Shown here: piece by piece, positions 44,240 to 44,375 of the stretch | Position numbering within the stretch: the stretch's first letter is position 1 | Layout of the letters: every line of letters begins with the position of its first letter | Origin: Escherichia coli | Lineage (GTDB): Bacteria; Pseudomonadota; Gammaproteobacteria; Enterobacterales; Enterobacteriaceae | Assembly: GCF_003334335.1 (NCBI RefSeq) | Contig: NZ_QOWQ01000004.1 | Strand: one strand, 5' to 3' | Length of the DNA stretch: 64,000 nucleotides | Program-made: the position numbers and the translations under genes | Notes under the pieces: generated by a model | What the model was told of the DNA's origin: nothing | Database searches by the model: none | Seen by the model: only the letters and a program-made list of their open reading frames with translations

Positions 44240-44270
44240 AAAAAAACCCGCGCAATGGCGCGGGTTTTTT
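44240..44270 (-). terminator. leu attenuator terminator hairpin
   Basis: Minus strand cccgcgc-cattg-cgcggg followed by ttttttt, between leuL and leuA. Confidence 0.8.
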
Positions 44271-44288
44271 GTTTGACTGCGTGCTGGC

Positions 44289-44375
44289 TTAATGCTGGAT
44301 GCCGCTCACTCGTCTACCGCGCAAAGAAGATGCGTTTAGTAGTAGTAGACCGATAAAGCGAACGATGTGAGTCAT
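44289..44375 (-). CDS. leuL: leu operon leader peptide (28 aa, four consecutive Leu codons)
   Basis: C-terminal 28 codons of ORF 44289..44480: [28 protein letters not shown]. Confidence 0.9.

Follow-up and report, generated by a model that had tools for sequence, protein, structure and literature searches.

The region immediately 5′ of leuA in this stretch of Escherichia coli DNA is, with very little room left for doubt, the leuL leader of the leuABCD operon, a transcription attenuator mediated by the translating ribosome. The leu attenuator is already known: it is a textbook element described in 1979-1981, and the original descriptions are those of Keller & Calvo 1979 and Wessler & Calvo 1981 (as cited in PMC3783181, PMC5314783 and PMC9291695). 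The window referred to below is the whole 64-kb stretch of DNA that was analysed; the leader and the leu genes lie on its minus strand, so that their RNA is read from high coordinates to low.

The identity of the element can be established from the RNA, from the surrounding DNA and from the proteins encoded. A cmscan search of the whole window matched the Rfam Leu_leader family (RF00512) at 44389..44240, minus strand, over model positions 1-148 of 148, with 145.8 bits (E 4.5e-32; gathering score 50). Many E. coli chromosomes share the 411 bases around the leader with 100% identity; in the E. coli RefSeq genomes the identical stretches carry the annotations ‘leuL: leu operon leader peptide’ and ‘leuA’, and the RefSeq leuL coding sequence maps exactly onto window positions 44375..44289. 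Against the NCBIfam equivalog NF007397 the LeuL peptide scores 80.9 bits (cut-off 59), and LeuA passes the 2-isopropylmalate synthase equivalog NF002084 with 1047 bits. Of 5426 complete E. coli genomes, 5400 have the leader-leuA stretch. As side observations in that set, 26 genomes are without a match to it, one genome has it in two places, and three of the matches are on plasmids.

Layout of the leader and its neighbours

The leuL ORF (44375..44289, minus strand; delimited by sequence, by RefSeq annotation and by NF007397) comprises 28 sense codons and a stop: the ATG is at 44375 and the UAA at 44291..44289. A Shine-Dalgarno sequence, GGAG, lies 8 nt 5′ of the ATG (44384..44387). Residues Leu10-Leu13 are consecutive, and all four are encoded by CUA (44348..44337); these are the control codons. 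Across the window's 31 long ORFs, 3.5% of the Leu codons are CUA, and from that share the probability of four out of four by chance is ~1.5e-6. On its sequence, leuL would thus be a short ORF that combines a run of codons for the regulatory amino acid with a ribosome-binding site. A longer in-frame form of 63 aa, beginning at an ATG at 44480 (44480..44289, minus strand), was considered and set aside: its start is 5′ of the candidate -35 box described below, and the extension is without conservation in relatives. The 28-codon form is the real leuL.

Upstream of the ORF, a perfect TTGACA at 44433..44438 is the candidate -35 box of the leu promoter, and the hexamer TAACTC at 44410..44415, 17 bp past it, is a putative -10 element. 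With these assignments the transcript would start near 44403, ~25-30 nt 5′ of leuL, and the leader would be ~160 nt long. A consensus promoter scan reported no leu promoter; this was judged a false negative of the scan, because TAACTC is a weak -10 candidate without the T6 that the scan requires.

Between leuL and leuA lies an intrinsic terminator, the attenuator: AAAAAACCCGCGC, loop CAUU and GCGCGGGUUUUUU fold into a hairpin of 13 pairs at -19.7 kcal/mol (44270..44241, minus strand). Its G+C core consists of CCCGCGC (44264..44258) and GCGCGGG (44253..44247) on either side of the CAUU loop; pairing of A6 with U6 extends the stem to 13 bp (44270..44241), and a U-tract of seven U occupies 44246..44240. 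The distance from the stop codon is 24 nt to the G+C stem and 18 nt to the A-extended stem. A simple terminator pattern scan left the hairpin at 44241..44270 unlisted and gave three weak sites nearby instead. The miss was judged a false negative that does not count against the hairpin: A6/U6 pairing probably draws into the stem the T tail that the scan requires. The same hairpin also looks terminator-like on the plus strand because it is flanked by an A-run and a T-run; the leu attenuator hairpin may be bidirectional.

Beyond the terminator comes leuA, the first regulated structural gene (2-isopropylmalate synthase; 42625..44196, minus strand; recognized as an ORF, by NF002084 and in RefSeq). 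Its ATG, at 44196, is 43 nt past the U-tract on the same strand, and leuB is next. The leader therefore stands directly 5′ of the first leucine biosynthesis gene and in the same orientation. The retrieved RefSeq locus likewise has leuA and leuB downstream and, on the other side, a divergent leuO and then ilvI; in the window leuO starts at 45035 and ilvI at 46297.

The preliminary description had proposed much of this layout: a 28-codon leader leuL with four consecutive Leu codons, followed about 20 nt later by a GC-rich hairpin and a U-tract before leuA. It proved accurate throughout. The ORF at 44375..44289 is identical to annotated leuL and passes NF007397; the four codons are CUA at 44348..44337; the ‘about 20 nt’ agrees with 24 nt or 18 nt according to which end of the stem is taken; and hairpin and U-tract, together at 44270..44240, are 43 nt upstream of leuA. 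That this amounts to the classic transcription-attenuation arrangement is likewise borne out, by the full-model Leu_leader match, by the mutually exclusive folds set out in the next section, and by published leucine-specific control (PMC2836559).

Several other features of the window may be recorded here. Two A+T-rich stretches (26-30% G+C, vs ~50% in genes) are found on the leuO side: one, 44600..45000, separates the leu promoter from the start of the divergent leuO, and the other, 46000..46200, lies upstream of ilvI. For an identical E. coli genome, RefSeq annotates a 14-aa ‘hypothetical protein’ at 46134..46178 (minus strand), in the leuO-ilvI interval. Farther from the leader, a full-length SgrS small RNA is located at 38034..38260, plus strand (RF00534, 228.8 bits); in E. 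coli, SgrS is expected at a distance of ~6 kb from the leu operon. A TPP riboswitch matches at 36178..36277, minus strand (RF00059, 65.9 bits vs a gathering score of 54.3). Two adjacent naRNA4 matches at 27277..27342 and 27362..27427, minus strand (RF02564, each 60.2 and so only just above the threshold of 59.5), look like a tandem pair of repetitive extragenic elements.

Alternative folds and a proposed course of events

The 165-nt leader folds at -56 kcal/mol, compared with -38.4 ± 3.7 for dinucleotide shuffles (z = -4.8), and none of 200 shuffles was as stable as the leader. The free RNA, in both its MFE and its centroid fold, adopts a protector hairpin and a separate terminator. The core of the protector (the anti-antiterminator; 44350..44312, minus strand) is formed by GUCUACU (44350..44344) with GGUAGAC (44318..44312) and by CGCA (44334..44331) with UGCG (44323..44320). 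Hidden within it are the Leu codons and most of the sequence GCGCGG, the 5′ strand of the antiterminator; that is, the segment containing the control codons pairs with the antiterminator 5′ strand. In the free-RNA fold the protector is also extended outward, with 44365..44356 paired to 44311..44302.

The antiterminator was found in folds that represent a stalled ribosome. In these, the mask covered all RNA as far as 14 nt beyond the first A-site base, and the transcript ended just short of the 3′ arm of the terminator, the state in which the decision falls. With the A site on any of the four control codons (Leu1-4 of the run), GCGCGG (region 2; 44322..44317, minus strand, within codons Leu18-Arg19-Gly20) pairs with CCGCGC (region 3; 44263..44258, minus strand), and this helix closes an MFE structure of -19.9 kcal/mol. 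With the ribosome at Arg19, at Arg22 or at the stop codon, the pairing is lost. Region 3 is made of nucleotides of the terminator 5′ arm. Antiterminator and terminator are mutually exclusive because CCGCGC is common to both; protector and antiterminator are mutually exclusive because GCGCGG overlaps the protector. In silico, then, there is an antiterminator that shares nucleotides with the terminator and is free to form only under stalling on the control codons. The preliminary description had put forward the folding of mutually exclusive structures as the way to check its claim, and the claim survives that check: the antiterminator is predicted when the ribosome is on the Leu codons.

Two points bear on how these folds are to be read. 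Masking of a 30-nt footprint only gave, for Leu3 and Leu4, helices joining RNA 5′ of the ribosome to RNA 3′ of it; these are sterically implausible, and the folds were therefore repeated with everything 5′ of the leading edge masked. Moreover, when the full-length leader is folded at equilibrium the terminator always wins, the stalled ribosome included; the choice must therefore be kinetic, which is beyond proof by folding. A kinetic choice is accepted for attenuators in general.

A course of events can be proposed from these structures. A ribosome would load at GGAG/AUG and translate the 28-codon leader while RNA polymerase is still within the leader. When charged tRNA-Leu is plentiful, the ribosome would pass the four CUA codons; region 2 (GCGCGG) would then be covered by the ribosome, or be re-captured by the Leu-codon segment in the protector; region 3 (CCGCGC) would be left free to pair with region 4 (GCGCGGG, 44253..44247); and the terminator hairpin with its U-tract would stop transcription at ~44240, 43 nt before leuA. 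Under a shortage of charged tRNA-Leu, the ribosome would stall on the rare CUA codons; the stalled footprint would melt the protector and stop a few nucleotides short of GCGCGG; GCGCGG would pair with CCGCGC once the latter leaves the polymerase; and, with the terminator blocked, transcription would read through into leuABCD. The geometry of the ribosome footprint and the kinetic, non-equilibrium nature of the choice are presumed in this account.

For leucine-specific regulation, for the effect of codon identity and number, and for a NusA-enhanced pause, the account leans on the literature. When the E. coli LeuL 5′UTR is fused to GFP and expressed from a constitutive promoter, leucine represses the fusion and glycine does not (PMC2836559). 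In the Salmonella leader, replacement of CUA by CUG lowered sensitivity (Carter et al. 1986, as described in PMC1183508). RNA polymerase pauses in leuL with a half-life of ~28 s, ~1.7-fold longer with NusA, and the pausing is unrestored by compensatory hairpin mutants (PMC9291695).

Conservation across the Enterobacterales

The comparative evidence comes from a genome scan anchored on the LeuA N-terminus only, a design that kept the leader itself unbiased. It yielded 120 loci, nearly every one from a separate species of Enterobacterales; the genera covered range from Escherichia to Xenorhabdus, Budvicia and Edwardsiella. A simple ORF search within 330 nt upstream of leuA found an ORF with at least three consecutive Leu codons at 115 of them (two, L112 and L117, being spurious ORF calls); at four of the five loci without such an ORF, the upstream sequence available was <150 nt.

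A few individual loci deserve mention. Candidatus Steffania adelgidicola (L047), an endosymbiont with a 1.37-Mb genome, is without a Leu-run leader ORF in the 330 nt upstream of its leuA, and its whole locus gives no Rfam Leu_leader match at the gathering score. A metagenome-assembled genome of an uncultured member of the Enterobacteriaceae (L059) keeps GCGCGG and the terminator and falls below the Rfam threshold; in its unusual leader, MLCIHSANLLLRLRLNCARRECG, Leu codons are interspersed with Arg codons. Affinibrenneria salicis (NZ_VYKJ01000001.1) has two leuA starts on one scaffold, at ~240 kb and 831 kb (L104 and L105); the 190-nt leader regions taken into the alignment are identical, which suggests either a duplicated leader-leuA segment or an assembly artefact.

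Alignment with MAFFT of 111 distinct leaders (alignment A1: window positions 44222..44411 and 110 loci) separates fixed from variable parts. The columns for GCGCGG, CCCGCG, CGCGGG, the T-run and the Leu-codon run are invariant or nearly so, and the remaining peptide and the spacers vary. The leuL ATG column is at least 90% conserved; the U-tract never varies at the last six of its seven T positions (44245..44240), and conservation at the first (44246) is 90% or more. CUA makes up 84% of the control codons in 108 related leaders; some 30 species have four control codons, and in most of the others three follow an ‘LLx’. Within the peptide, the motif L-R-G-R-x-V is conserved. The run of Leu codons ends 14 nt from GCGCGG in 95 of 107 leaders, a spacing that would fit a footprint barely exposing region 2 when the ribosome is on the last control codon.

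Each of the helices can be followed through the same 111 sequences. The terminator has 98% of its cells paired and a G+C core that never varies. The 6-bp antiterminator pairs in all 111, with only two changes, both from G-C to G-U. The inner helices of the protector have 95-96% of cells paired, and one protector pair shows double changes in 44 sequences (UA in 52, CG in 42). The outer helices of the E. coli free-RNA fold, by comparison, have ~50% of cells paired across species; they are unreliable and may not be real. When the leaders were folded one by one, at least five of the six antiterminator pairs formed under stalling in 106 of 107, and region 2 was sequestered by upstream pairing in 96 of 107 free truncated leaders.

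One variation touches the codons and the protector together. Rosenbergiella, Budvicia, Pragia and Hafnia (L008, L010, L012, L022, L038 and L074) use CUC instead of CUA as the control codon, and in these CUC users the 3′ strand of the protector is changed accordingly: it reads, for example, CUGGCU or UGAGCC, not UAGAC.

No covariation was found in the antiterminator or terminator cores of the 111 sequences, because their columns are invariant; support for these two helices therefore takes the form of conservation and pairing potential. Conservation extends to synonymous sites: in 109 of the 111, CGC is the Arg codon used within GCGCGG. The invariance would be understandable if region 3 pairs alternately with regions 2 and 4: any substitution there would then need two simultaneous compensations.

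A further reading keeps the classical attenuator and gives its products a second job, with the abundant, prematurely terminated ~160-nt leader RNA or the 28-aa LeuL peptide acting in trans. The precedent is the trp attenuator of Sinorhizobium meliloti, the RNA rnTrpL and peptide peTrpL of which act in trans (PMC6614838 and PMC7298713); in E. coli, 5′UTR-derived fragments can gain sRNA functions (PMC7815308); and the conserved L-R-G-R-x-V motif of the peptide can be counted in its favour. That conservation, however, coincides with constraints on the RNA: GCGCGG encodes L-R-G, and the next codons lie in the protector stem. A literature search on leuL together with sRNA turned up no report of a trans role. 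The chance of such a role is put very low; nothing in the evidence here supports it, and alternate pairing of region 3 is the simpler reading of the invariance. If it were true, a trans role could add reasons for the unchanging G+C cores and the L-R-G-R motif in 111 species.

Less credible still is the suggestion that the hairpin terminates constitutively, or closes an upstream transcript, with the Leu-codon ORF being a chance frame without a regulatory role. Short ORFs are indeed common (71 of at least 20 aa in 4.5 kb), and the terminator is thermodynamically dominant in every full-length fold. A chance frame, however, sits poorly with a Leu-run leader upstream of leuA in all but a handful of the 120 loci, where most of the exceptions have too little upstream sequence; with control codons that are rare, improbable by chance at ~1.5e-6, and yet hold an 84% share in relatives; with a GGAG 8 nt before an ATG that is conserved to at least 90%; and with the synonymous-site conservation of GCGCGG, CGC in 109 of 111. 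As for a transcript end, no gene ends upstream on the minus strand, leuO being divergent; and against a constitutive terminator stands the leader-fused reporter, which responds specifically to leucine (PMC2836559).

Relation to other attenuators and sensors

The ribosome-mediated attenuator recognized here agrees with the leuL of E. coli K-12 and Salmonella in its peptide, its four consecutive CUA codons, its succession of protector, preemptor (antiterminator) and terminator, and its place directly before leuA; at the level examined, nothing is different. In Salmonella enterica subsp. arizonae (L060), five of the 28 peptide positions differ (MSHIVRFTGLLLLNAFSVRGRRVGGIQH), and the control codons and all three G+C cores are kept.

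The other enterobacterial attenuators, those of trp, his, phe, thr and ilv, work on the same principle: a short ORF with many codons for the regulatory amino acid, alternative 1:2, 2:3 and 3:4 pairings, an intrinsic terminator and coupling through a pause (PMC1183508, PMC9291695). The leuL leader has no sequence homology to theirs, and it differs in that its control codons are Leu codons and specifically the rare isoacceptor codon CUA. It also differs from the trp leader in the position of the stop codon, which in leuL comes well past region 2 and in the trp leader stands between regions 1 and 2.

A more distant comparison is with the T-box leaders of leu and ilv operons in Firmicutes. The output is the same, in that scarce charged tRNA-Leu, or uncharged tRNA-Leu, favours the antiterminator; the sensor is not, as the T-box senses tRNA by RNA-tRNA pairing without translation, whereas in leuL the sensor is the translating ribosome. 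The T-box covariance model gave no match in the 64-kb window at gathering thresholds.

This comparison raises the question of whether read-through at leuL might itself be set by something other than the translating ribosome: by a direct RNA sensor (a T-box or a leucine riboswitch) or by a protein, such as Lrp, that acts on the leader RNA. T-box leaders do control leu and ilv operons in other bacterial lineages, and protein-level regulators do act on the ilvIH-leuO-leuABCD neighbourhood. The Rfam scan, however, gives Leu_leader and no T-box or other riboswitch at the leuL locus; the leader is only ~160 nt long and mostly ORF; and the element tied to amino acid supply is the codon run, in which codon identity matters experimentally (in the work described in PMC1183508). 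Such a sensor is as hard to credit as the chance frame discussed above.

The ribosome-mediated attenuator thus stands as the reading of this region, and its value is that of a correct annotation: no open question is made testable by the leu attenuator. The comparative data, gathered across the Enterobacterales, add modest detail to the known picture.
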